Shown here: piece by piece, positions 13,662-42,589 of the stretch
Numbering within the stretch: the first letter of the stretch is position 1
Layout: the number at the start of each line of letters is the position of its first letter
Source: a virus
Taxonomy: Duplodnaviria; Heunggongvirae; Uroviricota; Caudoviricetes
Virus record (IMG/VR): IMGVR_UViG_3300047554_000375
Reading direction: 5' to 3' (one strand)
DNA: 64,000 nt
The notes under the pieces: model-generated
What the model saw: the letters and a program-made list of their open reading frames with translations, nothing else
Told to the model about the DNA's origin: nothing
Databases searched by the model: none
Made by a program: the position numbers and the translations under genes

Positions 13662-13666
13662 ATTAT

Positions 13667-13741: not shown

Positions 13742-13748
13742 AAAAAAT

Positions 13749-13823: not shown

Positions 13824-13826
13824 TTT

Positions 13827-13900: not shown

Positions 13901-13901
13901 T

Positions 13902-13977: not shown

Positions 13978-13995
13978 TTTTATTAGGAGTTTAAC

Positions 13996-14568: not shown

Positions 14569-14569
14569 T

Positions 14570-14646
14570 GCGGTTGTGACGGAATTGGTATACGTATCGG
14601 ACTTAAAATCCGAGTTCTGAGGGTTCGACTCCCTCCTTCCGCACCA
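14570..14646 (+). tRNA. type-I tRNA with leucine anticodon TAA; acceptor stem has two U-U mismatches
   Basis: stem TCGGA/TCCGA, loop CTTAAAA, T-loop TTCGACT, A73 CCA; acceptor GCGGTTG vs CTTCCGC; backbone TGACGGAATTGGTATACGT shared with 10659. Confidence 0.6.
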
Positions 14647-14650
14647 ATTT

Positions 14651-14727
14651 GCCCTTATGACGGAATTGGCATACGTGTTTGATTCAAAATCAAAATTTTG
14701 TGAGTTCGAATCTCACTTTGGGCACCA
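14651..14727 (+). tRNA. type-I tRNA with leucine anticodon CAA; acceptor stem has two U-U mismatches
   Basis: stem TTTGA/TCAAA, loop TTCAAAA, T-loop TTCGAAT, A73 CCA; acceptor GCCCTTA vs TTTGGGC. Confidence 0.6.
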
Positions 14728-14730
14728 TAA

Positions 14731-14753
14731 TTACTCTACAAATTTTTAAAGAA
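14731..14753 (-). repeat. repeat A copy 3 (inverted orientation)
   Basis: reverse complement of TTCTTTAAAAATTTGTAGAGTAA, abutting tRNA-Arg(TCT). Confidence 0.8.
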
Positions 14754-14756
14754 TAG

Positions 14757-14831
14757 CTGGCGTTAGTATAATGGATAATACAGTAGGCTTCTACCCTTCT
14801 GATGGGAGTTCGATTCTCTCACGCCGGACCA
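14757..14831 (+). tRNA. tRNA-Arg (anticodon TCT)
   Basis: acceptor CTGGCGT/ACGCCGG, D-stem GTAT/ATAC, loop CTTCTAC, T-loop TTCGATT. Confidence 0.7.
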
Positions 14832-26316: not shown

Positions 26317-27072
26317 ATGGCTAGAAAAGCAAATACAAAAATTAGAATTGTTGGTGATGATACTGTCCAAAACAAAACTTCTAATGCGCTAAAAATAAAA
26401 ATAGATGACCTAAAAACTTTTCAACCATTAACAGAGAATCAAAAATTATTCTTTAATGCATACAAGCAAGGTGACTACTTTGTTGCATTACATGGTGTAG
26501 CAGGCACTGGTAAAACATTCTGTGCATTGTATAAAGCACTTGAGGAAGTTCTAGACAAGAGTAACCCTTTTAAGAAAATTATTATTGTTCGTTCCGCAGT
26601 TCAGTCTCGTGAAATGGGACACTTGCCAGGTGATGTTGATGAAAAGATGGAAATCTATCAACAGCCATATGTTCAAATTTGTGAAACCTTGTTTGATAGA
26701 AAAGATGCGTATCAACGCCTAAGTGAGCAAGGTTATATTGAGTTCATTTCAACTTCATTCATTCGTGGTATGTCATTTGATGATGCTATCATTATTGTGG
26801 ATGAAATGCAAAACTTGACCTTTGAAGAAATTGATACAGTTATGACCCGTGTCGGTTATCGTTCTAAAATTGTTTGGTGCGGTGACTATAGACAAACAGA
26901 CTTGAACAAACGCAAGAATGATATGTCAGGCATTTTGAAGTTTTTTGATATTGCTTGGCACATGGGTGCGTTTACCAAGATTGAATTTACACCAGACGAT
27001 ATCGTTCGTTCATCATTAGTGAAAGATTACATTCTTGCTAAGATGCACTACGAAGATTCGCAAACTACCTAA
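26317..27072 (+). CDS. phoH: PhoH-like ATPase
   Basis: Walker A GVAGTGKTF and a PhoH-family layout (Walker B IIIVDEMQN). Confidence 0.85.
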   Translation: MARKANTKIRIVGDDTVQNKTSNALKIKIDDLKTFQPLTENQKLFFNAYKQGDYFVALHGVAGTGKTFCALYKALEEVLDKSNPFKKIIIVRSAVQSREMGHLPGDVDEKMEIYQQPYVQICETLFDRKDAYQRLSEQGYIEFISTSFIRGMSFDDAIIIVDEMQNLTFEEIDTVMTRVGYRSKIVWCGDYRQTDLNKRKNDMSGILKFFDIAWHMGAFTKIEFTPDDIVRSSLVKDYILAKMHYEDSQTT

Positions 27073-27075
27073 ATT

Positions 27076-27729
27076 ATGTTTACATATTGCCCACCGAAAA
27101 AACTTGAAGACTTAAAATCAGAAACACTAAACAACGGAAGATATTACACTACACCGACCGGTGAGAAACTACCTTCCGTTACCACTGTTATTGGTGCGAT
27201 GGGCAAGAAAGCGATTTATGAATGGCGTCAGAGAGTTGGTGCAGAGGAAGCAAATCGTGTGTCACGCATCGCATCAGGTCGTGGCACACGAATGCACACT
27301 TTATGTGAAAAGTATTTGAATAATGAAGAGTTGGGTAAACCGATGCCTGACGCACTAGCATTATTCAATACTGTAAAACCTCTACTAAATAGAATAAATA
27401 ACATTCACTACCAAGAATGTGCTTTGTGGTCAATTAGACTTGGAATGGCAGGTCGTGTTGACTGTATCGGTGAGTTTGATGGTAAGTTATCTGTTATTGA
27501 TTTCAAGACCTCAAGCAGAGTAAAAACCAAAGAAGATATTCCCGCATACTTTGCCCAATGTGTGGCATATGCATTGATGTATGAGGAATTGATTGGTGTT
27601 AAGATTCACCAAATTGTCGTAATCATGGCGGTCGAAGGATCGAATCCTATCCTTTTTGTCGAAAGGACGGGTGACCATGTGAAAACATTGAAAGAATACA
27701 TAGATTTTTATAAAAAAACTGGCACATAA
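27076..27729 (+). CDS. putative PD-(D/E)xK superfamily nuclease
   Basis: GRVDCIGEF...DFKTS motif resembling a D...(D/E)xK core; weak. Confidence 0.5.
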   Translation: MFTYCPPKKLEDLKSETLNNGRYYTTPTGEKLPSVTTVIGAMGKKAIYEWRQRVGAEEANRVSRIASGRGTRMHTLCEKYLNNEELGKPMPDALALFNTVKPLLNRINNIHYQECALWSIRLGMAGRVDCIGEFDGKLSVIDFKTSSRVKTKEDIPAYFAQCVAYALMYEELIGVKIHQIVVIMAVEGSNPILFVERTGDHVKTLKEYIDFYKKTGT

Positions 27730-27757
27730 ATATGGTATAAAACTTTGAGAGATAAAC

Positions 27758-28315
27758 ATGGCATTACAATCATCAGGAGCAATATCGTTTTCTCAGATTC
27801 AGTCTGAGTTCGGTGGCTCAAATCCAATCAGTTTAAATGAATATTATAGTGCAGATGATGGTGTAGCGGGAAGTGGTACAATTTCCGTCAATCAATTTTA
27901 CGGAAGATCCAGACCATATTCTGCTAACTACACCACAATCAGCGCATATTACATTCCCACAGGAGCAGGTGGTACGGGAGAAGGTTTTTGGCGTGATGTT
28001 GCATCATGGACAAACAACACCAACAGAAAAGGTTCCGTCAGAATGTGGGGACATTTATGGGATGGATATTTTGGACCAGATAATTATGGTGCATGGTATT
28101 ATTCTCGTGGTAGTCATGTTTTCGGTTATAGGCTTTATCAAAACTCTTATCTATTGGTTGATGGATGGTACGGATATCACGGTGCTACCCATCCCTACTG
28201 GGACTTCACAACATATCTAAACAGAAATGATACTCTAAAAGCACAATATTATGGCTGGGGAAGTTATAATACCGACAAAATCACTGGTGGCTATTTCAAT
28301 ATCGGAGGAAGTTAA
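27758..28315 (+). CDS. Gly/Tyr/Trp-rich putative virion protein
   Basis: N-terminal AISFSQIQSEFGG...ISLNEYY motif; an ATAAATA late-promoter-like box lies upstream. Confidence 0.65.
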   Translation: MALQSSGAISFSQIQSEFGGSNPISLNEYYSADDGVAGSGTISVNQFYGRSRPYSANYTTISAYYIPTGAGGTGEGFWRDVASWTNNTNRKGSVRMWGHLWDGYFGPDNYGAWYYSRGSHVFGYRLYQNSYLLVDGWYGYHGATHPYWDFTTYLNRNDTLKAQYYGWGSYNTDKITGGYFNIGGS

Positions 28316-28584
28316 TGAGTAAAGTTTTTATTGGATATTCATTCCATATTCAATCACATTATGATAATGCATTGGATTATTTAAATAGTCGCTTACCGGA
28401 AAACCATGTTCAAATTGATTCTTCGCCGGTAGAATTGAAAAATGGAAAAAAAGCACTTGTTTGGCCAGAAGAGGCAGATTCGAACACATATATTTCCATT
28501 CTTTCAACACAATATGGTCAACCTATGCAATTTGTAACAGATGTTGATTTCTATCATCCAGGAAACGATTACGGAAATAATTGA
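28315..28584 (+). CDS. hypothetical protein
   Basis: ORF track, ATGA overlap. Confidence 0.6.
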   Translation: MSKVFIGYSFHIQSHYDNALDYLNSRLPENHVQIDSSPVELKNGKKALVWPEEADSNTYISILSTQYGQPMQFVTDVDFYHPGNDYGNN

Positions 28585-28593
28585 ACAATATTG

Positions 28594-28622
28594 TTGACAA
28601 ATAAATCATTATAATATATAAT
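28594..28622 (+). promoter_or_regulatory. sigma70-type promoter TTGACA-N17-TATAAT heading the enzyme cluster
   Basis: hexamers. Confidence 0.65.
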
Positions 28623-28646
28623 TTTTTAATATTCAGGAAGTGAAAA

Positions 28647-30200
28647 ATGAAAGATGAAAAAAATCCGAACAACTTTAATCCAGTTAATTCGGTAACTATT
28701 TTTGGTGGCGGTACTGCTGGTTGGATAACAGCACTCTCACTAACAGTTCAATGTCCACAATTAGCAATCACACTAATCCAACCCAAGTCACATTCGGTTA
28801 TAGGTGTTGGTGAATCCACACAACCAGACTTACTGCAACTCCTCAATAAAGCGGGAATTCCTATAGGCGAATTTATTCGTGAGTGTGATGCCACTGCAAA
28901 ATGTGGTATTTACTATGAAGATTGGTATGATATTGGAACACACTTTTGGCATCCATTTACGGACATGGCAAACAGTGAAGTCAACTACACCCTCGCACAT
29001 CATTATCAACAATTGATGTTGAAATATCCAGAAAAATACACACACGAAGATTATTATGATGCGGTGCATCCGTCTTATGATGTTTGTGTAACACATAAAA
29101 AAGTTGATGGAAAAAACGCTGCCGCACTTCATGTTGATGCCGACAAGATGCATAAATTTTTGCGTGAAAGACTTGATAATGTTACTGTATATGAGCCCGA
29201 AACTATTGAAGTTGTTTCCGAAGACAGTCAAGAAATACGATTCATTGATTGTGATGGTGTAAAAGTTGGCGGTGATTTGTTTATTGATTGTACAGGCTTC
29301 AATCGTGTTTTGATGCAACATTTAAATAATGTTGATGAAGATGCAAAAGAATACTATCACGAAAATGTTGAATCTGCAATCTTTGCAAGAATTCCTTACA
29401 TTGACCGTGAAAAAGAAATGTTGCCTTACACCAAAGCACATGCACAAAAACATGGCTGGATTTGGACAATTCCTCTATTCAGTCGCATAGGCTCAGGCTA
29501 TGTTTACACGAAAAATTCGTGTACTGCCGATGAAGCAGAAAAACAATTCCGTGAGTATTGGGGCGTTGAAAGAATGAAAGATGTTCCAATAAAGCATTTA
29601 GAATTTAAAAGCGATTCTTTAAAGCAACCATGGAAGAATAATGTTGTTGCTATCGGTCTAAGTTCTGGTTTTGTTGAACCTCTAGAGGCAACTGGTATTA
29701 ATTGGATTGTTACTGCGGCAAATAATTTATCTGCCGTTTTAGCGAGAAAATATTATGACCAACATGTTATTGATTTTTACAATTCTGGCATGAGTAACTA
29801 TGTCTCAGATGTTCAAGATTTTATTGATGTTCACTATAAACTTTCCAATAGAAAAGATTCTGTTTTATGGAACTATCATACAGTAAGAGGACATAATCCT
29901 AGATTGTATAGAAAATTGGAAGTCTATGGCACAGAAATGCCTGCGAAATGGAATAGACCTAGACATATGCCTTGGGCTTTCAATGAAGTTTCTTGGATTG
30001 ATATTTTGAATGGATACAAATTTAAATTTGAGGTTCAAGATATCAATGACGAGACTGTAGCAAGAATGCAGAAAGAATTCGCAAGAATTCGCTCTCTGAA
30101 AAAAGGAAGAGCGGATCATTGTTTAACACCATACGATTTTATTAAAGAAATACATGATACAAATAACAACACGCCAGTGGAAGAATTACCAAACAAATAA
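28647..30200 (+). CDS. flavin-dependent (tryptophan-type) halogenase
   Basis: N-terminal GGGTAGW FAD motif and the signature GWIWTIPL (WxWxIP) motif. Confidence 0.85.
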   Translation: MKDEKNPNNFNPVNSVTIFGGGTAGWITALSLTVQCPQLAITLIQPKSHSVIGVGESTQPDLLQLLNKAGIPIGEFIRECDATAKCGIYYEDWYDIGTHFWHPFTDMANSEVNYTLAHHYQQLMLKYPEKYTHEDYYDAVHPSYDVCVTHKKVDGKNAAALHVDADKMHKFLRERLDNVTVYEPETIEVVSEDSQEIRFIDCDGVKVGGDLFIDCTGFNRVLMQHLNNVDEDAKEYYHENVESAIFARIPYIDREKEMLPYTKAHAQKHGWIWTIPLFSRIGSGYVYTKNSCTADEAEKQFREYWGVERMKDVPIKHLEFKSDSLKQPWKNNVVAIGLSSGFVEPLEATGINWIVTAANNLSAVLARKYYDQHVIDFYNSGMSNYVSDVQDFIDVHYKLSNRKDSVLWNYHTVRGHNPRLYRKLEVYGTEMPAKWNRPRHMPWAFNEVSWIDILNGYKFKFEVQDINDETVARMQKEFARIRSLKKGRADHCLTPYDFIKEIHDTNNNTPVEELPNK

Positions 30201-30774
30201 TTCAATTAAACCGGATTGGACAAAAAACACTCAAGTCTCGACATGTCCCGGCTTGATGAATTATGTTACGGAAGGATTAGTTGTCCTTTGTCCAGATGAT
30301 TTCGAATTCGAAACTGCTGACGGAAAACTTATTCACTGGAGCGCAACTTCCGAAAACAATTTGATTCCACACTATTACTGGCAAGCAGACATTGTAAATC
30401 CTGGTCACACAATCGTAAAGTTTGACACAGGAATTATGTTGAAGCATGTGGAAGAACACAGATTGTTTTGTTTATTATCAGACTATGAGCCTATGAATCC
30501 GGCAATCAAAGTTATGCCTGCCGTTTTTCCTCTGTTAGATGTTTGGTCTCCAGTTATGATGAATACTGTTTGGCGAGATGGTATTCATAAAGTTAAAAAG
30601 GGTGATCCTCTTGCAAGAATATTCCTATCATACTATGGTGATTTTGAATATGAATATGCAGGTGAAACGAACTATCTCAAACAAGCCGAAGAATGGCTCA
30701 AGTTGAAAGAGGAACCAAATATACTAACTGCTTTCAATAAAGAAATGAAGAAATGTCCTTTCCACAATAAATGA
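30154..30774 (+). CDS. hypothetical protein (cluster member)
   Basis: ORF track; the start may be further downstream (47-nt overlap with the halogenase). Confidence 0.55.
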   Translation: MIQITTRQWKNYQTNNSIKPDWTKNTQVSTCPGLMNYVTEGLVVLCPDDFEFETADGKLIHWSATSENNLIPHYYWQADIVNPGHTIVKFDTGIMLKHVEEHRLFCLLSDYEPMNPAIKVMPAVFPLLDVWSPVMMNTVWRDGIHKVKKGDPLARIFLSYYGDFEYEYAGETNYLKQAEEWLKLKEEPNILTAFNKEMKKCPFHNK

Positions 30775-30775
30775 T

Positions 30776-31870
30776 ATGCACTACTATTCTGAAGATGGTA
30801 CGATATTCATGTCGAAAGTTAGGGCATTAGAGTATGGTAGAAAAAAACAACAGAAAATAAACTTCTATTACTATGATGATGTTTATAGTAAATGTGACTG
30901 GACTACAGAACCATCTGAAAGTTTGGAATATTACTATAAAGAGCAAGCACAAAGAATCCGTGATAACTATGATTATCTGATTCTTTGCTACTCTGGTGGA
31001 GCAGATTCGACAAACATTTTAGAGACTTTCCACTTTAATGGTATCAAACTTGATAAAATTATTACAGTTGGTGCTTTAAGTAAAGATCCAGAATATGGCT
31101 CAGATAAAAATCATAATGGTGAACTTTATCATAATGTTTTTCCATATATCAAAGAATTGGGTTTAGAATCAATCACAGAGGTAATTGACTACACAAAATT
31201 TTTTGATGATATCAACAGTCTATCAATCGTACAATATCAGGATGAATGGATCGACATTGTTGGTCCATGGTACAGTCCACATCACTGGTTCTGGAGAGAT
31301 TTGGAAAAACATGTTGTTCCTAAAAATATAGGCAACAAACGAGTTGCCATAATTTTTGGTAAAGATAAGCCAGGTCTATTCTACGGAAAGACAAATAAAC
31401 CAGATGTTATCTTACCGAGCGGAAATACCATGCTGAATGGATTCAACTTCAAAGATACCCCGTGTTCAGATTATGGTAACTTAAACTTACCGTACGGTTA
31501 TACAAATATTGATAGAGTTAATTTTTATTGGGATCCAACTTATCCACAGATACTTTTGAAACAATTACATGTTTTAAAAAATCATTATGTAATAACACAT
31601 TCAACATCATACGATCCATTCTTAGGGTCACAGATGTTTGGTGGAAAAATGACGGATCATATTGTTTACAATCTGAAAAGACCTTTGGTTTTTAAATCAC
31701 CAAAAAGTATCACTCCCATTATAAGTTTGAGGGACGATTTTCTGAAGGACAGTAAAGATTCGGATGTTTTTAAACTGCATGATGCTGGTATAAAAAAGAT
31801 GAAGATGCATATTGATTTGAATGAATTGGTGACAATCAATTCTAAATTTTATAATATTCTAAAAGGATAA
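30776..31870 (+). CDS. PP-loop ATP pyrophosphatase superfamily protein (paralog A)
   Basis: LILCYSGGADS (SGGxDS) motif; N-terminal region is paralogous to 36029-37228. Confidence 0.75.
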   Translation: MHYYSEDGTIFMSKVRALEYGRKKQQKINFYYYDDVYSKCDWTTEPSESLEYYYKEQAQRIRDNYDYLILCYSGGADSTNILETFHFNGIKLDKIITVGALSKDPEYGSDKNHNGELYHNVFPYIKELGLESITEVIDYTKFFDDINSLSIVQYQDEWIDIVGPWYSPHHWFWRDLEKHVVPKNIGNKRVAIIFGKDKPGLFYGKTNKPDVILPSGNTMLNGFNFKDTPCSDYGNLNLPYGYTNIDRVNFYWDPTYPQILLKQLHVLKNHYVITHSTSYDPFLGSQMFGGKMTDHIVYNLKRPLVFKSPKSITPIISLRDDFLKDSKDSDVFKLHDAGIKKMKMHIDLNELVTINSKFYNILKG

Positions 31871-31871
31871 T

Positions 31872-32714
31872 TTGATGTTTAAGAATAAGGTGCCTAAATT
31901 TTTTGGGCACATATCCGCACTAAAAGATGGTAATTTAGTTTTGCCGGATTTCATATTGAACAATGGTGAAGATGGCGTAAATTTAATGCACCGATATTGT
32001 CCACATAGAATGTATCCTATGCATACTCCTGGAGAAATTGTACAGGAAGTTAGTTGTAAATTTCACAATTTCAGATGGGACAAAAATGGAGTTCCACTCA
32101 ATAATGATAAGAAACTACATTGTGGTAAAATAACAACAGGTCGCAGTGGTGTTTTGTTTAGAGATTTTATTGAACCTGACCACAAATGGGTTGATGATTT
32201 GTCGAATGAGAAAAATTTGAAATATAGTCATTCACTGGAAGGTCAGAGTGAAGGAAGTTGGCTGTGGTTATTGGATGCTGAAGCCGATTTACTCCATGTT
32301 TACGAGGATGGTATTCATCCGTTCTTGTCGAAACAAGTTAAGATAGAAGATATTCAAATGGATCAAGGTGATGGTTGGATTCTACAAACACATCCGACTG
32401 GTTGGTGGTTGTATGTTTTTCCATTCTTGTTCATTGAATACTCACCAGGTTGTGTGATGATAAACAATGTCATACCAAACGATATCAATACTGAGTTTGG
32501 TTTCAAGTGGATATCACAGTTCTATTATGATGATAGTGTTGATGTGGGTGCTAGAAGAATCTTTGAAACTTGCGAAGAAGTTTTTTGTGAGGATGTTCAA
32601 ACAGCAGAGTTACAAAAAGGTAAATACTTTCCTCTGATGAAGGCGATGAACAGATATGAGGATCATTGTGTTCATCTAGGAAAATGGTACAGAGAAAATG
32701 TTAACAAAGAATAA
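31872..32714 (+). CDS. Rieske [2Fe-2S] domain protein, oxygenase-like
   Basis: CPH-X16-CKFH Rieske motif; downstream DLLH...EDGIH resembles a mononuclear iron site. Confidence 0.75.
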   Translation: MMFKNKVPKFFGHISALKDGNLVLPDFILNNGEDGVNLMHRYCPHRMYPMHTPGEIVQEVSCKFHNFRWDKNGVPLNNDKKLHCGKITTGRSGVLFRDFIEPDHKWVDDLSNEKNLKYSHSLEGQSEGSWLWLLDAEADLLHVYEDGIHPFLSKQVKIEDIQMDQGDGWILQTHPTGWWLYVFPFLFIEYSPGCVMINNVIPNDINTEFGFKWISQFYYDDSVDVGARRIFETCEEVFCEDVQTAELQKGKYFPLMKAMNRYEDHCVHLGKWYRENVNKE

Positions 32715-33513
32715 TTGGTTATACACCAATCTAGCGGATAGATTTACAAATCCTGCTTCCGATTTTAATATGGGTATAAACTTATATCCGTTTAAACATA
32801 TGACTTTTCAGGAAGCCGCTGATTATACTTGCATGGAGATTGTAAAAAATTACGACAATCTTTTTCTTGCGTTCAGTGGTGGCATGGACTCAGATTTCGT
32901 TTTGCGTTGCTTTCACAGAAATAATATTGCTATTAAACCAATCATCGTTGTCTGTGGTAAACAGATTGAAAATGAGTATGCATATAGATTGTGTGATGAA
33001 CTAAAGATAGAACCCATAATTATTGAAATTACCGAAGAGCAATTCATATACTTTTACAGAGAACACATTTATAAAAAGTTTAATGGAGTAGGATATAATG
33101 CATCACAAGTCTTGGTGGCTGCCGAATTAGTTGAAAAAGAAGGTGGTACATTAATAACAGGAAATCACTTTATGGGTGATGGTGATGATATGATAACCGA
33201 TGAAGTTTATCTGATATCGAATGAGTGGGACTTCTATACAGACTACTGTTTTACAGGATGTAAAAATATAGACTTCTTTCTCTACACACCAGAGATTGCA
33301 TATGCTATGATGCCTGATGAAAACATCACATGGAATAGACACAAAGAAAAAATATTTCAAATTCCATATAGAGATAAAATGCGTCCAGTTTATTCTGAGG
33401 AGACCACTGCTGAGGTGAGAAGAATGGCCAGAAACAGGATTCCTCTAAAGAAGACTGGTGAAGTTTGGACTAAGAATAAATTCCTAAATGTTTTCGATAA
33501 ATATAAATTTTAA
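32698..33513 (+). CDS. PP-loop ATP pyrophosphatase superfamily protein (divergent third copy)
   Basis: LAFSGGMDSD motif. Confidence 0.7.
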   Translation: MLTKNNWLYTNLADRFTNPASDFNMGINLYPFKHMTFQEAADYTCMEIVKNYDNLFLAFSGGMDSDFVLRCFHRNNIAIKPIIVVCGKQIENEYAYRLCDELKIEPIIIEITEEQFIYFYREHIYKKFNGVGYNASQVLVAAELVEKEGGTLITGNHFMGDGDDMITDEVYLISNEWDFYTDYCFTGCKNIDFFLYTPEIAYAMMPDENITWNRHKEKIFQIPYRDKMRPVYSEETTAEVRRMARNRIPLKKTGEVWTKNKFLNVFDKYKF

Positions 33514-33522
33514 GGAACATTT

Positions 33523-33867
33523 ATGCCTAAAATCATAAAAACTATTACCAACAAATCCAACAATAAGGCTTGGATCAACACAAACGAGTATCAAAATTAT
33601 TTCACTCAAGAGCAGATAGATGGAATTATTAATCCATATACAGACTATGTTCAAAGTTTGCCAGGTTTCATTTCTGTTAATATTGAAGAAACATCAAATA
33701 CATTAGTGATTACTCACGAATTTGATACACAGGAAAATTTAGAGGTCGCATTAAACAATCTTGGTGGTCCAAATGTCAACTCTATCGTTGTTATGAGAAA
33801 TACACTTTTCACAGAAAAGTTACAGGGACTCGGAGCAAATTCTACTTTAACTATAACCTTTGAATAA
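33523..33867 (+). CDS. hypothetical protein (cluster member)
   Basis: ORF track. Confidence 0.6.
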   Translation: MPKIIKTITNKSNNKAWINTNEYQNYFTQEQIDGIINPYTDYVQSLPGFISVNIEETSNTLVITHEFDTQENLEVALNNLGGPNVNSIVVMRNTLFTEKLQGLGANSTLTITFE

Positions 33868-33870
33868 TTT

Positions 33871-35163
33871 ATGTTTAGTCGTGATACATATTGTATTTTG
33901 CCATGGTCATCAATACAAATAAATCCATCAGGAGATTATAAAATTTGTTGTTTCTCTGGAGTGACTGGAGAAAATCACGGAATGGCGATTGACTCTGATG
34001 GAAAAGTGATGAATGTTATGACACATTCAATAAAAGAAGCATTGAATAGTGAAAATCATAAACAATTAAGATTGTCACAATCGAAAAATGAGAGAAATCC
34101 TTTATGCAAAGTTTGTTGGGATAGGGATGATGCCAACAAAAATAATGCAAGAACAACATCATTAAGATTCTTTAGGACATTCGACCAATTACCAGGACTA
34201 GATAATGCAGTAACATTGGAGAAGGCATCCGGTGTTATGGCTAATGATGGTTCAATTGATGAGTTTCCTATTAGTTTGGATTTGAGATTTACTAATGTCT
34301 GCAATATGAAGTGTATCATGTGCAGTTCGAAATATAGTAATCAATGGTATGAAGATGAAGAAAAACTGTATGGAACAAATTTCATGCATGTGGATCCATC
34401 ACTAAAATATAACATCATAGTGAAAAATGGAGTTTATAAATCTGACATGCCTGTTTGGCATGATTCTGACGCATGGTGGAAAAATTTTGATGACATTAAA
34501 CACAGAATACGACACCTTTATCTGACAGGCGGAGAACCGTTTATAGTTAAAGGACATGATGTTCTCTTAGACAAACTAATTGAGTTGAATTTGGCTTCCA
34601 ACATTATCTTGGAATATGATACAAATCTTAGTGTAATCAACGACAAAATATTGAATAGACTAAAGCAGTTCAAAGAAGTTATTTTATCTGTTAGTTGTGA
34701 CGATGTTGATGAACAATATGAGTTGATAAGATTTCCTGGAAAATTCAGCAACATGACTAAAAATTTACAGTTGTTGAAGGACAGAGATTTTGAGATAAGA
34801 CATTTGTCCACTTGTATAGGAATTTATTCTATATTTTCTCCACTTAGACTTCGTGATAAATTTCCTGAATATAAATTATCACTTAGAATGTTGAGAGCAC
34901 CATTTCATTCTGATATAATGTATTTGCCTAAAAGTGCTAAAGAGGAAGTCATTCGTGTCTATAGAGAATCTAATATCGAAGATAGGTGGAAGAACTTTGT
35001 TATTTCATATTTGGAAAATAATATGAATACATTTCCAGATAAAGAATGTGTTGATATGACAAAACAGCACATTAACTATCTAAATAAATTGGATGAGATT
35101 CGTGGTACAGATTGGAAAAAAACATTTCCTGATGTTGTTAAATTATTAGAAAGATGCTTATGA
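33871..35163 (+). CDS. radical SAM enzyme with N-terminal Cys-rich extension
   Basis: CNMKCIMC (CX3CX2C) and LYLTGGEPF motifs; additional CxxC pairs near the N-terminus. Confidence 0.8.
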   Translation: MFSRDTYCILPWSSIQINPSGDYKICCFSGVTGENHGMAIDSDGKVMNVMTHSIKEALNSENHKQLRLSQSKNERNPLCKVCWDRDDANKNNARTTSLRFFRTFDQLPGLDNAVTLEKASGVMANDGSIDEFPISLDLRFTNVCNMKCIMCSSKYSNQWYEDEEKLYGTNFMHVDPSLKYNIIVKNGVYKSDMPVWHDSDAWWKNFDDIKHRIRHLYLTGGEPFIVKGHDVLLDKLIELNLASNIILEYDTNLSVINDKILNRLKQFKEVILSVSCDDVDEQYELIRFPGKFSNMTKNLQLLKDRDFEIRHLSTCIGIYSIFSPLRLRDKFPEYKLSLRMLRAPFHSDIMYLPKSAKEEVIRVYRESNIEDRWKNFVISYLENNMNTFPDKECVDMTKQHINYLNKLDEIRGTDWKKTFPDVVKLLERCL

Positions 35164-36032
35164 AAATTAAAATGATGTTATTGAGTTTATTGTTGTCGTT
35201 GAATGTGAATGCACAAACAACAGTAATTTTGCCTGTTGGCTCTGGTGGTTTGATTCACAAATATGCACTTGAGATGCAACCATTCTTCAACAAAACATTG
35301 GATGGTGTTGTGTATGATTTGAAACCTGGTGCAGGTGGTGTTATTGGCGCCGCTGCCCTCGCTGAGAATAAGACAGAAAAAATGGTTCTACTATTTGGTC
35401 CTGTACAAAACTGGCCAACTAATCCATTGACAGATATGATTCCTGTAGCATATATGGGAACAATTCCTGGTGTGATTTTTACTAAACAAAACACCAAATA
35501 TTCAAACTTCAAAGAAGTTATGGAATATGCTAAAACAAATTCTGTTTCATATGGAGTTCCTGGCGCAAGTAATAATGGTAAATTGATCCGCAGTATGGTA
35601 GAAAAATATAGCACACCGAAGAATGTTATTGAAGTCCCTTATAAAAGTGGTGCGATGATTACAACGGATGTTGTAGGTGGTCACTTAGAAATTGGTGTGT
35701 CGATTCCAAATAATATAAATCAATATATTGATGAAAATAAGTTGACTGCTTTAGGTGTTTTTGCCGCACAGCGTTCGCATTATTTGCCTAATGTGCCAAC
35801 ATTACGAGAACAGGGTTTGTCCATTCCTCAAGACTATAAGTATTTCAACAATGTTTTCTTGTTTGCAAATAAGACTGCTAATCCACAAGATGTTGAAAAA
35901 TTGCGTAAAGCAATCGTAGAATTTATGCGTAGCGATGAATCTTTGGAAGTCAGAAAGAGAATGGATATTAGTTTCGGCAAACAAAGTATTTCATCACCAG
36001 AAAAGTATATCAGAGAAATTATTACAGAATGA
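35154..36032 (+). CDS. secreted Bug/TctC-family-like solute-binding protein
   Basis: signal peptide; KPGAGGVIGAAALAE region resembles the tripartite tricarboxylate receptor family. Confidence 0.6.
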   Translation: MLMKIKMMLLSLLLSLNVNAQTTVILPVGSGGLIHKYALEMQPFFNKTLDGVVYDLKPGAGGVIGAAALAENKTEKMVLLFGPVQNWPTNPLTDMIPVAYMGTIPGVIFTKQNTKYSNFKEVMEYAKTNSVSYGVPGASNNGKLIRSMVEKYSTPKNVIEVPYKSGAMITTDVVGGHLEIGVSIPNNINQYIDENKLTALGVFAAQRSHYLPNVPTLREQGLSIPQDYKYFNNVFLFANKTANPQDVEKLRKAIVEFMRSDESLEVRKRMDISFGKQSISSPEKYIREIITE

Positions 36033-37228
36033 TTATCACCAACATGTCTGTCAATTCTATTGATAGACTTGGACATTATGAAGTAGGTAATCAGAGATTC
36101 CTACACAAACATATTGCGTTGTTTGAATCGAAGAGAACAAATCAAAAATTAAAATTTTATTTTAATGATGATGTTTTTGACCAGTATGATTGGACAACGG
36201 AGCCTGAGCCAGATACTGGCTTGGGTGAATTCTACAGACGCCGAGCGCAACAGTTGAGGGATAACAATGATTATCTAGTTCTATCGTATAGTGGTGGTCC
36301 AGATAGTCAGAATATCCTAGATACTTTCCTTAAATATGATATCAAATTGGATGAAATTGTAAACTTCAACAGTTACAAATCAACCAATGTTGTTGAAGGA
36401 ACTATTCACAACGCAGACTATCTCTATAATGTTAAACCACAAGTGGATGAAATCGTGAAGAGATATGGAACATCAAAAATGAAAATAACCATTCTTGATG
36501 AAGTTGAAATGTTGGATACAATCTGGAAAGAATTTAGAAAGCGTGATGAGCATGAGATATTGTTTGGTGCAAATAGTTTTCCTTCTGCTCCACTCTACAG
36601 AGGTTTCTGGATTAAACACACAAAACATATCTGGGATATGATCCTTGAAGGAAAAAAAGTTTGTGTGATATATGGAACAGATAAACCAACACTAAGAATA
36701 AGTGATGGAAAATATTCGATGGGTTTCAATGATATCTTTTCATGTGATACTGCTGGAATGATTCTATCTGATCCTGATTTGAAAGGGAGAAATTTTCTAG
36801 AGTTCTTCTATCAAAGCCCTGATGATGTTAAACTTATAATTAAGCAAGCACATGTTTTGAAAAGATATGTTGAAAAACTGGATCATCCAGGATATTTTGA
36901 ACCAAGAGAGCCATATTTTAGAATGGGTAATCGTCCACATTTATATTGTGAGAGTAAAGAATATAGTGGTAATCTGAAATACAAATACTTCCATGAGACA
37001 ATTTATCCTGACTGGAAACCTGTGTTCATAACACCTAAAGAAGGATTTCTGGGTAACAGACCTCTGGATAATTGGTGGGTAGATAGTATGGACAAATCAG
37101 TATCATCAATATGGAAACATGGAAGTGAAGAAACTTTTAAAAAATTCAAGGACATTTTAAAAGTGGGTACAACAGGTTTCACTGGATTACCATTGACAAT
37201 GAGCAAATATTATTCCCTGGAGAAATAA
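36029..37228 (+). CDS. PP-loop ATP pyrophosphatase superfamily protein (paralog B)
   Basis: LVLSYSGGPDSQN motif; paralogous to 30776-31870 (both have YDWTTEP...RDN.DYL.L.YSGG.DS.NIL.TF). Confidence 0.75.
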   Translation: MIITNMSVNSIDRLGHYEVGNQRFLHKHIALFESKRTNQKLKFYFNDDVFDQYDWTTEPEPDTGLGEFYRRRAQQLRDNNDYLVLSYSGGPDSQNILDTFLKYDIKLDEIVNFNSYKSTNVVEGTIHNADYLYNVKPQVDEIVKRYGTSKMKITILDEVEMLDTIWKEFRKRDEHEILFGANSFPSAPLYRGFWIKHTKHIWDMILEGKKVCVIYGTDKPTLRISDGKYSMGFNDIFSCDTAGMILSDPDLKGRNFLEFFYQSPDDVKLIIKQAHVLKRYVEKLDHPGYFEPREPYFRMGNRPHLYCESKEYSGNLKYKYFHETIYPDWKPVFITPKEGFLGNRPLDNWWVDSMDKSVSSIWKHGSEETFKKFKDILKVGTTGFTGLPLTMSKYYSLEK

Positions 37229-37452
37229 TGAGATATTATATTCGCTACAATGTTGACCATAAAAATGGTAAAAGTGACTTGCCATGGAAAGTATTTGAAT
37301 CCGAAGATAAATTTTACTTGACAAGAAATGTAATTCTCTATACAATATCATGGACTGGTGACACACCGTTTCCTGACGGTGGTTTCAAGTACAGCATCTA
37401 TTGTGATGGAAAAATGACTTCTTGTGATGAGAATGAAATTGTGATAGAATAA
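37228..37452 (+). CDS. hypothetical protein
   Basis: ORF track, ATGA overlap. Confidence 0.55.
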   Translation: MRYYIRYNVDHKNGKSDLPWKVFESEDKFYLTRNVILYTISWTGDTPFPDGGFKYSIYCDGKMTSCDENEIVIE

Positions 37453-37454
37453 AT

Positions 37455-37785
37455 AGATGTATGGTTGTATGAAGCAACTTGAAAAGTGTTCTGGACGGGG
37501 GTTCGAATCCCCCCATCTCCACCAAAAGCATATACAGGTTTAAGTCCTGAGTGATACGGTGACCGAATCCGTACTTCCAGATTTGGGTGTGCTTTTGATG
37601 GGGATGCACTTGGTTTCGACAGGGCAACAAGTATAGAAGTGGACAACTTATCAGAGTAGATATAAAAACTAAATAAAGTAAACGCAAACGATGAAAAGTT
37701 CGCATTGGCAGCCTAAACGCTGACTAGGGTTTCGGTGGATTCCTCGTAACAGAATATCCACCACTTTACACATACACAACACAGG
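37455..37785 (+). ncRNA. ssrA: circularly permuted (two-piece) tmRNA gene, tag peptide ANDEKFALAA
   Basis: T-arm CGGGGG-TTCGAAT-CCCCCC plus acceptor 3' strand CATCTCC-A-CCA at 37496-37524; the acceptor 5' strand GGGGATG...TTCGACAGGG starts DOWNSTREAM at 37600, with G3-U70; the tag reading frame GCA AAC GAT GAA AAG TTC GCA TTG GCA GCC TAA lies at 37684-37716; gene boundaries are approximate. Confidence 0.75.
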
Positions 37786-37792
37786 AGATAAT

Positions 37793-38056
37793 ATGAGTAT
37801 GAGTCCCTTTGAGATTCGCCTAGAATTACTGAAAATGGCAAAAGATATGCTAGAATCAGATTACTTCGGCGAAAGAGAAAAAATAGCCAACCAGTTCGCA
37901 ATGGACTGTGATTCAGCAAAAGCAAAAGGTGCAGAGACCCCTAAGCATCCAGGCTATCCAAAATATCCATCAGAACAAGAAATTATCAACAAAGCACAAA
38001 CACTAAATGGGTTCGTGTCGATGTTGCCTGACGCCACAAAGCCGAAGAAATCCTGA
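37793..38056 (+). CDS. hypothetical protein
   Basis: strong RBS AGGAG. Confidence 0.65.
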   Translation: MSMSPFEIRLELLKMAKDMLESDYFGEREKIANQFAMDCDSAKAKGAETPKHPGYPKYPSEQEIINKAQTLNGFVSMLPDATKPKKS

Positions 38057-38097: not shown

Positions 38098-38655
38098 ATG
38101 CGAAGTATGCCTATACTTTTAAGTATAATGCTATCAGCAGTTATCTTAACTATGTCGATGGTAAATATCAGACAGCCAGATTTACCAATCAAAGCGAATT
38201 ATAATGTATTGACTGCGGAACTACAGAAACAAGTTAGTTGTCTAGCAGAAAACATTTACTTTGAAGCGGCACACGAACCACTAGAAGGTAAACATGCCGT
38301 TGGTTTCGTGACAATCAACAGAGTTCAATCTGGTAACTATGCTAATGATATATGTGGAGTTGTTCAACAAAAAGATGGTAATCTATGCCAATTTTCTTGG
38401 TATTGTGATAAGACAATTACCAACAAACGATTGACAATCAAACAAACTCCGTTGTATAATGAGATATTGCAGATTGCAACAAATCTTGTTGTAAACTTTG
38501 AGAGAATGACAGATGTGACAAACGGTGCAACTTACTATCATGCCAACTATGTTAATCCTGGTTGGACAAGATTGAAAAAAGTTGAAACGATTGGTAATCA
38601 CATTTTTTATAAACGCAGTTCGGACAGAATTGACAGAAATAAAGGAATCATATGA
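38098..38655 (+). CDS. SleB-like cell wall hydrolase (endolysin) with N-terminal signal-anchor
   Basis: N-terminal TM segment; YFEA(A/R)xEP...GKxAVGxVxxNR and QFSW core resembling the SleB/hydrolase-2 family. Confidence 0.8.
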   Translation: MRSMPILLSIMLSAVILTMSMVNIRQPDLPIKANYNVLTAELQKQVSCLAENIYFEAAHEPLEGKHAVGFVTINRVQSGNYANDICGVVQQKDGNLCQFSWYCDKTITNKRLTIKQTPLYNEILQIATNLVVNFERMTDVTNGATYYHANYVNPGWTRLKKVETIGNHIFYKRSSDRIDRNKGII

Positions 38656-38870
38656 ACAAAGACTTGATTACAATTTTAACTTGTGTTACAATTGTTATGT
38701 GTACCGTAATAATTGCAGGTTTTAATTACAATATCAATACACAAAACAACATGGCAAAAAACATTGAATCAGCCATCGCAAAGGGTGTTGATCCAGTATC
38801 TGTGAAATGTGCATACGAAACAAGTTCAAATGCAGTTTGCATCACATATGCGGCGACAGCGAAAAAATGA
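38652..38870 (+). CDS. small membrane protein (holin/spanin candidate)
   Basis: TM helix; directly downstream of the endolysin. Confidence 0.5.
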   Translation: MNKDLITILTCVTIVMCTVIIAGFNYNINTQNNMAKNIESAIAKGVDPVSVKCAYETSSNAVCITYAATAKK

Positions 38871-40042
38871 GTAAAACATTAGATGAAATTTTAAAAAGTA
38901 TGAATGTTGTAGCAAGTCCTGATAGACCTATTAGAGTAACAACAGCAGGAAGAGGAAGAAAATTTGGTGGAAGAAAATCTGGACGAAGACGCATATTTAA
39001 CAGTTGGACATGGAGTAGCGAAGAAATCGCATCACACAAAATGAGTAATGAGAAAATTTTTATTGGCGCATCGGATTATAGTGACTATCTGTATTCACAA
39101 TTATTGGATGCAAGAACAGTTGATGGTAAATCAACACTAAGTCGTGAATTGAAACTTCTTGGTGGACGTTCAAAGTGGCAAGAATTCATTGAAGATGAAT
39201 TTGATGGTGACCACATCCTAGAATTCCACGATTCTGCTGGAATTATTGTAACTGAAGGCAATAACTTCATTCGTTATAATGTTAGTTCAAACACAATCAC
39301 AGTTACCATTTATGGCGATGAAATTTTTCTAAAAAATGCATCAGACATTTTATTGAAACAATTCGAAGAAGTCACATCATATATCGAATGGGTTTATTCA
39401 AGCGATGGTAATGCAGTAAATGTTCCTTTGAATGTGGAACGACTGCCAGTTGATGAAATGTATCCTTTTCTGAAAGATGAAAAGTTGACAGACTACTATG
39501 ACCGTTTCCTTGAATCAAACGCAAACATTCTTTTGTTGATTGGACCACCAGGTACTGGTAAGACTACATTCATTCGTGGTCTATTGGCTCACAGTAACTC
39601 CTCGGCCATCGTTACATACGATGCTCAAATCTTGGAGAAAGACTATCTGTTTGCACGATTCATTGAAGATGAAACTGGTGTCATGGTTCTGGAAGATTCG
39701 GATAACTTCCTGAAAGCACGAAGTGATGGTAACACAATGATGCACCGCTTTTTGAATGTGGGTGATGGATTGGTTACAACAAAAGGTAAGAAGTTGATTT
39801 TCTCAACAAACTTGCCGAGCATCCGTGATGTTGATCCTGCGTTGATTCGACCAGGTCGTTGTTTTGATGTATTGTCATTTGACCAACTGAATGCTGAACA
39901 AGCAGAAAAACTTGCTAATCGTTTGGGTGTTTCATATGAAACTAAACCAGATGGTAAGTATAGCATCGCAGAGGTGTTCAATAAAAAAGTTGAAGGAACT
40001 GCCAACAATAAAGGTGTTGGTAAAAAAATGGGTTTTGTTTAA
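38867..40042 (+). CDS. AAA+ ATPase
   Basis: Walker A GPPGTGKTT, Walker B VLEDSD; the ATGA start lies inside track ORF 38807. Confidence 0.85.
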   Translation: MSKTLDEILKSMNVVASPDRPIRVTTAGRGRKFGGRKSGRRRIFNSWTWSSEEIASHKMSNEKIFIGASDYSDYLYSQLLDARTVDGKSTLSRELKLLGGRSKWQEFIEDEFDGDHILEFHDSAGIIVTEGNNFIRYNVSSNTITVTIYGDEIFLKNASDILLKQFEEVTSYIEWVYSSDGNAVNVPLNVERLPVDEMYPFLKDEKLTDYYDRFLESNANILLLIGPPGTGKTTFIRGLLAHSNSSAIVTYDAQILEKDYLFARFIEDETGVMVLEDSDNFLKARSDGNTMMHRFLNVGDGLVTTKGKKLIFSTNLPSIRDVDPALIRPGRCFDVLSFDQLNAEQAEKLANRLGVSYETKPDGKYSIAEVFNKKVEGTANNKGVGKKMGFV

Positions 40043-40052
40043 GGAGTATATT

Positions 40053-40325
40053 ATGGCTGTACAACAGTTTTCTATCAATCAAATCTCTAGTGAGGCAGAC
40101 CGCAAGAAATTGCTTGATGCTATCAAAGAGTGTTCTAATTCCATGATCCGTATGGATGGTGAAAAAGAATTTATCAAAGAGGCAGTAAAGAAGGTGTGTG
40201 ACGATTTGAAATTGCCTAAAAGAATTGTCAACCGTCTTGTCAAAGTTTATCATAAACAAAACTATGACGAAGAAGTGGCAACACACGAACAGTTCGAACA
40301 ACTTTATGAAACTATCGTTAAGTGA
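40053..40325 (+). CDS. hypothetical protein
   Basis: RBS AAGGAG; trimmed from track ORF 39891. Confidence 0.7.
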   Translation: MAVQQFSINQISSEADRKKLLDAIKECSNSMIRMDGEKEFIKEAVKKVCDDLKLPKRIVNRLVKVYHKQNYDEEVATHEQFEQLYETIVK

Positions 40326-40546
40326 TGCCAACAAAAGATGAGATGTATCAGTTCCAGTTGAAGATTGAAGAAATCGTGGCTGGTACTGATTACAATTACA
40401 TGGAAGCAATCGTTGATTATTGTGAACAAACTGGTATGGAGATTGAACTGGCTTCATCACTGGTAAACAAAGACCTTAAGGCAAAGATTGAGGTCGATGC
40501 ACAAGAATTGAACATGTTACCCAAAACTACCAGACTTCCTATTTGA
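40325..40546 (+). CDS. hypothetical protein
   Basis: ORF track. Confidence 0.6.
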   Translation: MPTKDEMYQFQLKIEEIVAGTDYNYMEAIVDYCEQTGMEIELASSLVNKDLKAKIEVDAQELNMLPKTTRLPI

Positions 40547-40565: not shown

Positions 40566-41147
40566 ATGACAGGTTATGAAGCATTTACATTGTATCATGT
40601 GTTGAAACTCCATTTCACCACAGACTATGATTATTTCAAATACAATGGAAAATCCAATATTAGCATCGAAGCGTTTGAGAAACGAAAAGACAAATACCAC
40701 TTCTACAAGTTGTCACGCAAATATGACACCGAGGAGTATAAACAGTTTTTAGTTTCCAACTTCTTTGTTGATGAAAAAACATGGGCAGGTTCTTTACTTG
40801 CCGATGATGCTCGTGAAGCACACATGGAACGATTGGCGGTAATTCAAGCAATGAGTTATCACTTCAAAAATGATTGTGCTTTGATAGCCGAAGAAGGAAA
40901 AATCAATGAACTTCTACACACAGATGGAGAATATCCTACACTACTCAACATGGTGTTGTATGCAGAAATCAAAGATGAAACCTTGTGTATATTGAATTCG
41001 CTGATGGGTTTCATGCCCATGTGGGAAAAAAGAATCGCTGATAATATCAGATATCCTTCCCTTCACAGAAAATGGATTAAATATACACCTTTTATTATGT
41101 TTGACCGAACCAAGTTTCGTGAAATTGCCTTGAAAGAATTACGATGA
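40566..41147 (+). CDS. hypothetical protein
   Basis: ORF track; extended -10 promoter TGTGATATAAT upstream. Confidence 0.75.
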   Translation: MTGYEAFTLYHVLKLHFTTDYDYFKYNGKSNISIEAFEKRKDKYHFYKLSRKYDTEEYKQFLVSNFFVDEKTWAGSLLADDAREAHMERLAVIQAMSYHFKNDCALIAEEGKINELLHTDGEYPTLLNMVLYAEIKDETLCILNSLMGFMPMWEKRIADNIRYPSLHRKWIKYTPFIMFDRTKFREIALKELR

Positions 41148-41635
41148 TTGAAAAGATTTATTTGGATATGGATGGTGTTCTCTGTAACTTTGAACGCCGT
41201 TACTTCCAGTTATACAATGAACTCCCAGGTTCAATGCGTGACCGAAAAGAATTCAGTAATCATTGGGACCACTTTATTGAGACAAAGCAATTTGAAACTT
41301 TGGAATGGTATCCTGGTGGAAAAGAATTGATAGATTTTTGTATGAAAACAAAACTACCAATTGAGTTGTTGACTTCATCTGGTGGACAAAAACACCACGA
41401 AGAAGTTGAACGACAAAAGCGTGTGTGGCTAGATATGAATGGCTTAGTTAAACTGAAGGCAAATGTTGTTGCTGGACGCAAACGCAAGGCTGAATATGCT
41501 ACACCAAAAACAATTCTTATTGATGATACACCTGATGTTATCCAAGGATTTAATGCCGCAGGTGGTATTGGTATTCTTCACAAAGAAATTGGTAATACTT
41601 TAATGATGTTGCAAGACAGAATTGAAAGTAACTAA
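41144..41635 (+). CDS. HAD-family 5'(3')-deoxyribonucleotidase-like phosphatase
   Basis: N-terminal DMDGVL motif. Confidence 0.7.
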   Translation: MIEKIYLDMDGVLCNFERRYFQLYNELPGSMRDRKEFSNHWDHFIETKQFETLEWYPGGKELIDFCMKTKLPIELLTSSGGQKHHEEVERQKRVWLDMNGLVKLKANVVAGRKRKAEYATPKTILIDDTPDVIQGFNAAGGIGILHKEIGNTLMMLQDRIESN

Positions 41636-41704: not shown

Positions 41705-42589
41705 ATGTCTTTCGCTAATCTAAAACGCAACCGTGACAGCCTAGAAAAACTTACTAAGGCTATTGAGACCACCACACAAACTGCTGAGGCTGGCTCTAAA
41801 GAAGATACCCGATTCTGGCAACCAACTGTAGACAAATCTGGCAACGGAATGGCCACTATTCGTTTCTTGCCTGCTCCAGGTGTTGACGGTGAAGATGGAC
41901 TTCCATGGGTTCGCCGTTTTGACCACGGCTTTCAAGGACCAGGTGGTTGGTTCATTGACAACTGTTTGACTACAGTTGGTGAAAAGTGTCCTGTTTGTGA
42001 ACACAACTCTACACTATGGAACTCTGGTATTGAAGCAAACAAAGATATCGTTCGTAAACAAAAGCGCCGCTTGAGTTATGTTGCGAATATCTTGGTCGTT
42101 TCTGATCCAGCACATCCAGAGAATGATGGTACTGTTCGTTTGTTCAAATTCGGTAAGAAGATTTTTGATAAAATCTCTGAAGCGATGAATCCAGAATTTG
42201 CTGATGAAACACCAGTTAACCCATTCGACTTCTGGGACGGTGCAAACTTCAAATTGAAGATTCGTAATGTTGAAGGCTATCGTAACTACGATAAGTCTGA
42301 GTTTGCTGAACCATCTGCATTGTTTGATGGTGATGATGATAAACTTGAAGCCATATACAAACAAGAGCATTCATTGAAGGACTTCACAGATAAGAAAAAC
42401 TTCAAACCATATGAGCAATTAAAAGCCCGTTTGGATAAAGTTCTTGGCTTTGAAGGTGATGCTTTGCCTAGCATTCGTGCTGAAGATGTTGAATTGCCAA
42501 CACCAAAAACAGTTCGTGCCGCACAAGCACCTGCCGCTGATATGCCAGAGGACGATTTGGATTATTTCAAATCACTCGCTGACGAATAA
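41705..42589 (+). CDS. 32: gp32-type single-stranded DNA-binding protein
   Basis: KSGNGMATIRFLP plus a zinc-binding Cys/His cluster (CPVCEH), resembling the T4 gp32 N-terminal core; acidic C-terminus. Confidence 0.9.
   Translation: MSFANLKRNRDSLEKLTKAIETTTQTAEAGSKEDTRFWQPTVDKSGNGMATIRFLPAPGVDGEDGLPWVRRFDHGFQGPGGWFIDNCLTTVGEKCPVCEHNSTLWNSGIEANKDIVRKQKRRLSYVANILVVSDPAHPENDGTVRLFKFGKKIFDKISEAMNPEFADETPVNPFDFWDGANFKLKIRNVEGYRNYDKSEFAEPSALFDGDDDKLEAIYKQEHSLKDFTDKKNFKPYEQLKARLDKVLGFEGDALPSIRAEDVELPTPKTVRAAQAPAADMPEDDLDYFKSLADE

Follow-up and report, generated by a model that had tools for sequence, protein, structure and literature searches.

A circularly permuted, beta-type two-piece tmRNA gene at a conserved locus of T4-like phages

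Does a short region upstream of the endolysin gene of the uncultured virus IMGVR_UViG_3300047554_000375 encode a working two-piece transfer-messenger RNA (tmRNA), or does it hold a displaced piece of a host gene or a relic that detectors still recognise? We analysed a stretch of 64,000 nt from this virus (the window), which carries the genes of a T4-like phage, and conclude that positions 37463-37762 very probably represent a functional circularly permuted ssrA (tmRNA) gene of a lytic T4-like phage. This reading is supported by ARAGORN and Rfam, by base-pair covariation in 80 relatives and by synteny across T4-like phage contigs.

Anatomy and base-pair covariation of the gene

The original prediction, made by reading the sequence, described a permuted two-piece tmRNA with the tag ANDEKFALAA and proposed ARAGORN and Rfam covariance models as checks; both were run, and both agree with it. 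ARAGORN reports a permuted gene ('tmRNA*') at 37432-37807 (+ strand) with the same tag. The Rfam model RF01850 (beta_tmRNA) matches with 136.9 bits against a gathering score of 84 (E 1.2e-41; model positions 1-331 covered), and RF04321 (tmRNA_permuted) gives a full-model match of 125.3 bits against a gathering score of 47 (E 4.5e-24). By sequence and structure the gene is classed as a beta-type two-piece tmRNA (RF01850), its carrier being a T4-like phage and not a chromosome of the betaproteobacterial lineage.

The permuted order can be read directly from the DNA: the T-arm, the acceptor 3' strand and the CCA (to 37524) stand ahead of the acceptor 5' strand (G1 at 37600) and the tag frame, with 75 nt in between. 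The T-arm, acceptor strands, discriminator A, CCA, G3-U70 pair and tag frame all lie where they had been predicted, and a chance origin of these tmRNA features is excluded. The parts of the gene are as follows.

37422..37450, + strand: sigma-70-like promoter candidate (TTGTGA, 17-nt spacer, TAGAAT, TG extended -10; 9/12)
37463..37524, + strand: acceptor piece, the tRNA-like 3' half (ARAGORN, Rfam, covariation)
37463-37467 and 37487-37493, + strand: P2 strands of the acceptor piece (covariation)
37497-37501/37509-37513, + strand: T-arm, GGGGG/TTCGAAT/CCCCC, with T-psi-C-type loop TTCGAAT
37514-37520, + strand: acceptor 3' strand CATCTCC
37521, + strand: discriminator A
37522-37524, + strand: encoded CCA
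37525..37599, + strand: intervening segment, presumed excised, 75 nt
37600..37762, + strand: coding piece (sequence, Rfam, covariation)
37600-37606, + strand: acceptor 5' strand GGGGATG, forming a 7-bp stem in which G37602-U37518 is G3-U70
37611-37620, + strand: TGGTTTCGAC, invariant among relatives (fixed by the search pattern)
37620-37626 and 37644-37648, + strand: P2 strands of the coding piece (covariation)
37649-37652/37659-37662, + strand: hairpin P3 (per-sequence stem search)
37655-37657/37668-37670, + strand: possible second stem of pseudoknot 1, 3 bp
37684, + strand: resume codon GCA
37684-37716, + strand: tag frame GCA...GCC TAA, encoding ANDEKFALAA plus stop (TAA 37714-37716)
37707-37711/37720-37724, + strand: stop-codon hairpin P5
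37727-37729 paired with 37742-37744, + strand: GGG with CCT
37734-37739/37757-37762, + strand: hairpin P6 (per-sequence stem search)

Relatives were collected from viral contigs by pattern searches. A strict pattern (T-arm, CCA, 50-80 nt gap, acceptor 5' strand) had no match in viral contigs, and a looser pattern for the coding piece, which fixed TGGTTTCGAC and most of the tag, retrieved at least 120 loci. Among the 120 matches listed, ARAGORN recognised 113 tmRNAs, 96 of them permuted. We aligned 80 distinct permuted sequences, including the window's own, with MAFFT and counted base pairs on the structure drawn for the window.

Across these 80 sequences the acceptor stem is paired in 99.3% of cells and G3-U70 is present in every sequence. 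The T-arm is fully paired (100%), with double changes in all five pairs; P2a (37487-37493/37620-37626) is 99.1% paired, and the outer helix of P2 (37463-37467/37644-37648) 97.7%, with double changes in 5/5 pairs. The discriminator A and the CC that follows are invariant (80/80), and the final A is kept in at least 90%. For the structure as a whole, double changes occur in 40 of 50 pairs, a number reached by none of 500 shuffles, and overall pairing of 79.5% falls to 35-53% when the partner strand is slid by 1-3 columns. The search pattern covered neither the acceptor stem and T-arm nor the P2 strands on the 5' side, so their covariation is independent of how the sequences were retrieved.

One helix had to be redrawn. 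The acceptor-piece 5' region had been expected to pair with the 3' end of the coding piece (37455-37490 with 37740-37785); it pairs instead with 37620-37626 and 37644-37648 (97-99% paired), and 37734-37762 is a self-contained hairpin of its own. Duplex energies of the single sequence (-13.8 kcal/mol for the helix first proposed vs -14.1 kcal/mol for the true P2 partner, neither beating shuffles) could not separate the two options, and it was covariation that decided for P2. A helix P2 following the acceptor 5' strand, which links the tRNA-like and mRNA-like domains, is common to all tmRNAs.

Hairpins P3, P5 and P6 are 48-70% paired in the MAFFT alignment, a low value caused by register shifts, and P3 and P6 were therefore searched in each sequence separately. 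Of the 80 sequences, 71 have a P3 of 4 bp or more, in 25 distinct stems, and 68 have a P6 of 5 bp or more that encloses the conserved loop UUCCUCGUAACAGAAUA, in 40 distinct stems. The second stem of pseudoknot 1 shows covariation between subgroups at two of its pairs (G-C 48/A-U 23; C-G 40/G-C 7) and none at the third.

The tag is encoded by GCA AAC GAT GAA AAG TTC GCA TTG GCA GCC TAA. At positions left free by the search pattern, Leu8 is written as TTA, TTG, CTA, CTG or CTT and Ala7 as GCA, GCT or GCC, a turnover of synonymous codons, and F and Y are the sole residues at position 6. Relatives selected by similarity of their gp59 protein (see below), whose tags are unconstrained by the pattern, likewise end in ALAA or RIAA (ANDSQFALAA, ANEERFALAA, ANDSEYALAA and others). 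These patterns indicate that the tag is under selection at the peptide level at its pattern-free positions. If the phage tag differs from that of its host, as it may, it could offer a natural label for measuring phage-driven trans-translation.

A conserved phage locus and the question of host origin

The window holds genes for gp59, gp32, a gp33-type coactivator, baseplate proteins, PhoH and a PD-(D/E)XK nuclease, as expected of a T4-like phage. Megablast of 15 kb around the tmRNA gene against cultured phages gave no match, so this is a phage without a close cultured relative; its gp32 is ~57% identical to cyanomyophage gp32s.

To sample relatives free of the bias of the tmRNA pattern, we fetched 80 loci by gp59 similarity alone (52-100% amino-acid identity), 30 of which had at least 5 kb of upstream sequence. 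A permuted tmRNA lies 2.2-5.3 kb upstream of gp59, on the same strand, in 22 of these 30, and all nine tested are beta-type (9/9). Neighbours of the window's gene recur at 78 of the 120 listed viral loci with a tmRNA: the endolysin in 63, the PD-(D/E)XK nuclease in 54, gp59 in 46, an 87-aa open reading frame (ORF) in 43 and gp32 in 33. In a large, uncultured clade of T4-like phages, the permuted tmRNA is widespread and keeps its syntenic position; about three-quarters of the close relatives with enough upstream sequence have it.

The gene order around it in the window is PhoH, PD-(D/E)XK nuclease, tmRNA, gp33, gp59, gp32, with the following features.

26317-27072, + strand: PhoH (Pfam)
27076-27729, + strand: PD-(D/E)XK nuclease (Pfam)
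28647-30200, + strand: tryptophan halogenase (Pfam, E 8e-93)
31872-32714, + strand: Rieske protein
33871-35163, + strand: radical SAM protein with an N-terminal SPASM domain
35154-36032, + strand: TctC/Bug-family solute receptor
37793-38056, + strand: 87-aa ORF
38098-38655, + strand: Hydrolase_2 endolysin
38807-40042, + strand: AAA ATPase
39891-40325, + strand: transcriptional regulator
40322-40546, + strand: gp33-like late-transcription coactivator
40566-41147, + strand: gp59
41144-41635, + strand: 5'-3' deoxyribonucleotidase
41705-42589, + strand: gp32
9096-14831, + strand: tRNA array of 27 genes covering most amino acids (ARAGORN)

The context given in the original prediction was right, with an enzyme cluster (radical SAM/SPASM, TctC-family, tryptophan halogenase) upstream and a Hydrolase_2 endolysin downstream. 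The cluster belongs to a variable island of ~9.7 kb (~27730-37452, + strand) that abuts the tmRNA on its upstream side. Locus L101, which is 96.7% identical downstream, is without the island, and its nuclease gene ends ~50 nt from the tmRNA; the island is partly present in locus L010.

The gene might still derive from a host ssrA, as a piece or a copy acquired through imprecise excision or left behind at an attachment site, and be without a role for the phage. Integration at tmRNA genes is common and ssrA fragments can occur in prophages (PMC9004378), and some of the viral-contig matches are ordinary one-piece tmRNAs that may lie at prophage borders. The window's gene is, by contrast, complete, its pairs are kept by compensatory changes, and it occupies a fixed locus in lytic T4-like genomes.

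Bacterial genomes provide a further measure of host origin. With one genome taken for each of 185,579 species, a pattern for permuted genes whose intervening segment is short, which leaves out those with a long one, matched 114 loci, mostly in Rhodocyclaceae and Gallionellaceae, with scattered copies in Cupriavidus, Stenotrophomonas, Variovorax and Oligella. When 236 well-aligned core columns are compared, the nearest phage relatives have 82-98% identity to the window, whereas none of the bacterial sequences found exceeds 73.8%, the value for a Cupriavidus gene with the same tag. The nearest neighbour is a phage sequence for 78 of the 80 phage sequences, the phage beta-type sequences cluster apart from all sampled bacterial ones, and G+C content is 42% in phage copies vs 57% in bacterial ones, the window being phage-like.

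No segment identical to a host ssrA, the finding that the original prediction had said would speak for a host remnant, was seen among the bacterial genomes scanned, and its own argument against an attP remnant is borne out by the distance of the nearest bacterial tmRNA and by the fixed phage locus. Origin as a host attachment-site remnant is largely refuted, and we give the host-fragment explanation next to no probability.

Among the bacterial copies, seven Cupriavidus loci match the permuted pattern (L147, L166, L175, L179, L188, L216 and L229), five of them with the tag ANDEKFALAA, and C. consociatus LEh25 has pattern matches on two contigs. L166 and L188 score 281 bits with RF01850. The neighbours of the L188 copy are a LysR regulator and a RecD2 helicase, genes that speak neither for nor against a mobile element and do not tell if this copy is the sole ssrA.

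Expression, mechanism and benefit to the phage

The ends of the intervening segment form a stem (37521-37533/37587-37599) that extends the acceptor helix across ACCA. This closing stem is 92.6% paired among relatives, with double changes in 9 of 12 pairs, compared with 37-48% for controls slid by 1-3 columns. The segment alone has no unusual stability (z = -1.28), and its interior varies among relatives in sequence and in length, which runs from a few nt to over 200 nt. In loci L100, L090, L084 and L063, the arms of the closing stem are kept and ~100-230 nt of unrelated sequence is added between them. Similar flanks, complementary to each other, were read in one Cupriavidus copy, with AGAAGC after CCA and GCTTCT before G1. 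A closing stem around a free interior would fit a precursor built for precise excision, by analogy with known permuted tmRNA genes.

The promoter candidate at 37422-37450 ends 12 nt before P2 and aligns with a promoter-like stretch in the 5' part of the Rfam beta_tmRNA model. A stronger match (11/12) at 37318-37346 could also drive transcription. Promoter matches of at least 11/12 occur in 15 of the 80 relatives vs 0.06% of shuffles, and the high-scoring sites of relatives (at least 10/12) lie mostly 8-10 nt upstream of P2. Directly after the tmRNA stands the 87-aa ORF (37793-38056, + strand), which has a good ribosome-binding site and no Pfam or PHROG match; with no terminator between the two, they may be co-transcribed.

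Several observations weigh against a functional gene, or against parts of it as drawn. The candidate promoter is a weak match (9/12) and no terminator-like site was found 3' of the coding piece, so the ends of the RNA are uncertain. The last hairpin of the Rfam beta model (~ model positions 306-328) is deleted in the window, and the second stem of pseudoknot 1 has just 3 bp. The middle of P2 as drawn (37475-37480 with 37637-37642) is only 45.8% paired, and no register suits all subgroups; the unsettled part spans ~37468-37486 with 37627-37643, and some subgroups possibly form a local hairpin inside the acceptor piece in its place. Because the pattern fixed TGGTTTCGAC and tag positions 1-4 and 9-11, finding them invariant among the relatives first collected is circular. 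No SmpB homologue was found in the 64-kb window by tblastn, a weak test on part of a genome. Anatomy, conservation and permuted order are observed, whereas we infer every step of the mechanism.

Some of these points would suit a decaying or non-functional relic that detectors still see: the terminal hairpin of the Rfam model is missing from the window, the promoter is weak, and the gene is dispensable, since 8 of the 30 gp59-selected relatives are without it. A relic would not be expected to keep what these sequences keep at an average identity of ~70%, namely compensatory changes in every core helix, conserved identity elements and the tag peptide, a combination that argues for continuing purifying selection. 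We regard a relic as very improbable.

A functional permuted tmRNA would be made and used as follows. One precursor would be transcribed, probably by the host sigma-70 RNA polymerase, from the weak 37422-37450 promoter or by read-through, and would fold so that the acceptor stem runs on into the conserved stem closing the intervening segment. Host RNase P would cut 5' of G37600, and 3' processing would halt at the encoded CCA (37524), giving an acceptor piece of ~62-67 nt and a coding piece of at least 163 nt, which P2 and the acceptor stem would hold together. Host alanyl-tRNA synthetase would charge the RNA by way of G3-U70 and the discriminator A, and the charged RNA, with host EF-Tu and SmpB (the use of host SmpB is assumed), would enter stalled ribosomes. 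Translation would then resume at GCA 37684 and append ANDEKFALAA, directing the tagged product to proteolysis. Tags ending in LAA are recognised by ClpXP.

The likely benefit is that ribosome rescue is kept up during host transcription shut-off and host mRNA degradation, which fits the presence of 27 tRNA genes. Together, the 27 tRNAs and the tmRNA point to heavy investment by the phage in host translation. Within the tRNA cluster lies a GOLLD RNA (12906-13374, + strand; Rfam RF02032, 185 bits vs a gathering score of 150), in which a tRNA-Thr (12970-13040) is embedded.

The same RNA might instead be aimed at the host or its defences, by tagging nascent host proteins, competing with host tmRNA or relieving the stalling caused by defence nucleases. 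Host proteins tagged in this way would be degraded and their amino acids recycled, and the nucleases would be those that cleave tRNA or mRNA. The 27 tRNAs of the phage are in line with such a role, as large phage tRNA sets can offset defence nucleases that cleave tRNAs, and so are the strong early-type promoters of 15 of the 80 relatives. Buchholz et al. suggest selective tagging at an early stage of infection (PMC9004378), and a tmRNA-like RNA of mycobacteriophage DS6A, which is without a tag frame, inhibits host tmRNA (PMC11915505). The tag found here is canonical and conserved, which argues against a tag-less inhibitor. The anti-host roles would use the same molecular mechanism as plain rescue, and sequence does not tell them apart; we consider them unlikely and favour sustained ribosome rescue.

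Comparison with known two-piece tmRNAs

The experimentally established example is the two-piece tmRNA of Caulobacter crescentus (Keiler, Shapiro and Williams 2000, as cited in PMC9004378 and PMC11915505). According to these citing papers it is of the alpha type and chromosomal, and its processing has been shown, whereas that of the window's RNA is predicted. With the bacterial beta-type tmRNAs (RF01850; Rhodocyclaceae such as Azonexus/Dechloromonas, Thauera and Azoarcus, and Gallionellaceae) the window shares gene order, helices and the P6 loop. Their tags are similar (ANDERFALAA, ANDEQFAIAA), and a few Cupriavidus tags are identical (ANDEKFALAA). They differ from the window in an intervening segment of ~29 nt (Rfam beta model) vs 75 nt, and in having the terminal hairpin.

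The closest parallel in position is the Methylophilales phage Melnitz EXVC044M (MZ577097; PMC9004378), a lytic T4-like phage (Kyanoviridae) that, like the window, has a permuted ssrA. Its gene order of PhoH, PD-(D/E)XK nuclease, two small ORFs, SsrA, gp33 and gp59, with gp32 further on, is that of the window's locus, except that the window has the ~9.7 kb variable island between nuclease and tmRNA. Like the window's gene, the Melnitz tmRNA matches RF04321 (113.4 bits), but it is best classed as alpha type (RF01849, 106.7 bits) whereas the window's is beta type. Its tag, ANDNYVPVDYALAA, is longer and, like ANDEKFALAA, begins with AND and ends in ALAA. In Melnitz a glutamine riboswitch (RF01739, 52.8 bits) directly follows the tmRNA (locus L237, 2399-2447); at Rfam gathering thresholds, none was detected in the window or in nine beta-type relatives scanned whole.

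The Stenotrophomonas phages Marzo, Moby and Mendera (Menderavirus) are T4-like and, as in the window, their permuted tmRNAs are beta-type. The Marzo gene is annotated as a tmRNA in GenBank, scores 94.6 bits with RF01850 and 119 bits with RF04321, and is 83% identical over window positions 37460-37530. It differs from the window's in lying in a tRNA cluster near nrdA and not beside gp33-gp59-gp32, in its tag VAANDDSYTVRIAA, in a core identity of 62.5% and in the gammaproteobacterial host of its phage. At this Marzo locus (L236, 2748-3347), ARAGORN makes two overlapping calls, one standard (tag APDLGSDASA) and one permuted. Rfam backs the permuted call, and the standard one, which overlaps tRNA-Pro and tRNA-Leu, is probably spurious.

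A third phage parallel is the Synechococcus phage BUCT-ZZ01 (ON615601), a lake member of the Kyanoviridae, whose permuted tmRNA is also beta-type (RF01850, 94.5 bits; RF04321, 111.9 bits) and 69.8% identical to the window in its core. Its host is a cyanobacterium; unlike in the window, its tag is ANDETFSMALAA and the gene lies among tRNA and hypothetical genes. This tmRNA (locus L235, 2787-3205) is without annotation in the GenBank record and passes both Rfam thresholds. Nearby, ARAGORN calls a tRNA at 1665-1740 with the anticodon CTA (an amber suppressor, labelled 'Pyl').

The resemblance of the window's tag to betaproteobacterial tags had been taken as a hint at the host, a hint that loses its force because phages infecting the gammaproteobacterium Stenotrophomonas or the cyanobacterium Synechococcus elongatus have permuted tmRNAs of the beta type as well. 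The subtype is weak evidence for, and should not be used in, host prediction; the beta subtype travels with phages across host classes. At the same locus, related T4-like phages carry the beta type in the window's clade and the alpha type in Melnitz. It is conceivable, although improbable in our view, that T4-like phages have carried permuted tmRNA genes over long periods and passed them from one bacterial lineage to another. If so, phage carriage could explain the scattered permuted copies in Cupriavidus, Stenotrophomonas, Variovorax and Oligella, and the separate two-piece lineages could even be not fully independent inventions.

The novelty implied by the original prediction does not hold, as two-piece tmRNAs of lytic aquatic myophages have already been published, one of them at the same locus (PMC9004378). 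The Pf16 and Comamonadaceae-phage papers do not report a phage tmRNA. Of 18,146 phage genomes examined by Buchholz et al. 2022 (PMC9004378), 402 had tmRNA genes, which amounted to 133 distinct tmRNAs. ARAGORN called 53 of these 133 two-piece, 50 of the 53 coming from marine or aquatic phages; a permuted tmRNA was present in 17 of 47 Melnitz-like contigs, and their Table S1 lists the Stenotrophomonas phages Mendera and Moby as 'Permuted'. The window's gene is a further phage-borne two-piece tmRNA of a kind already documented and annotated; as a single gene it adds little, and its value is comparative.

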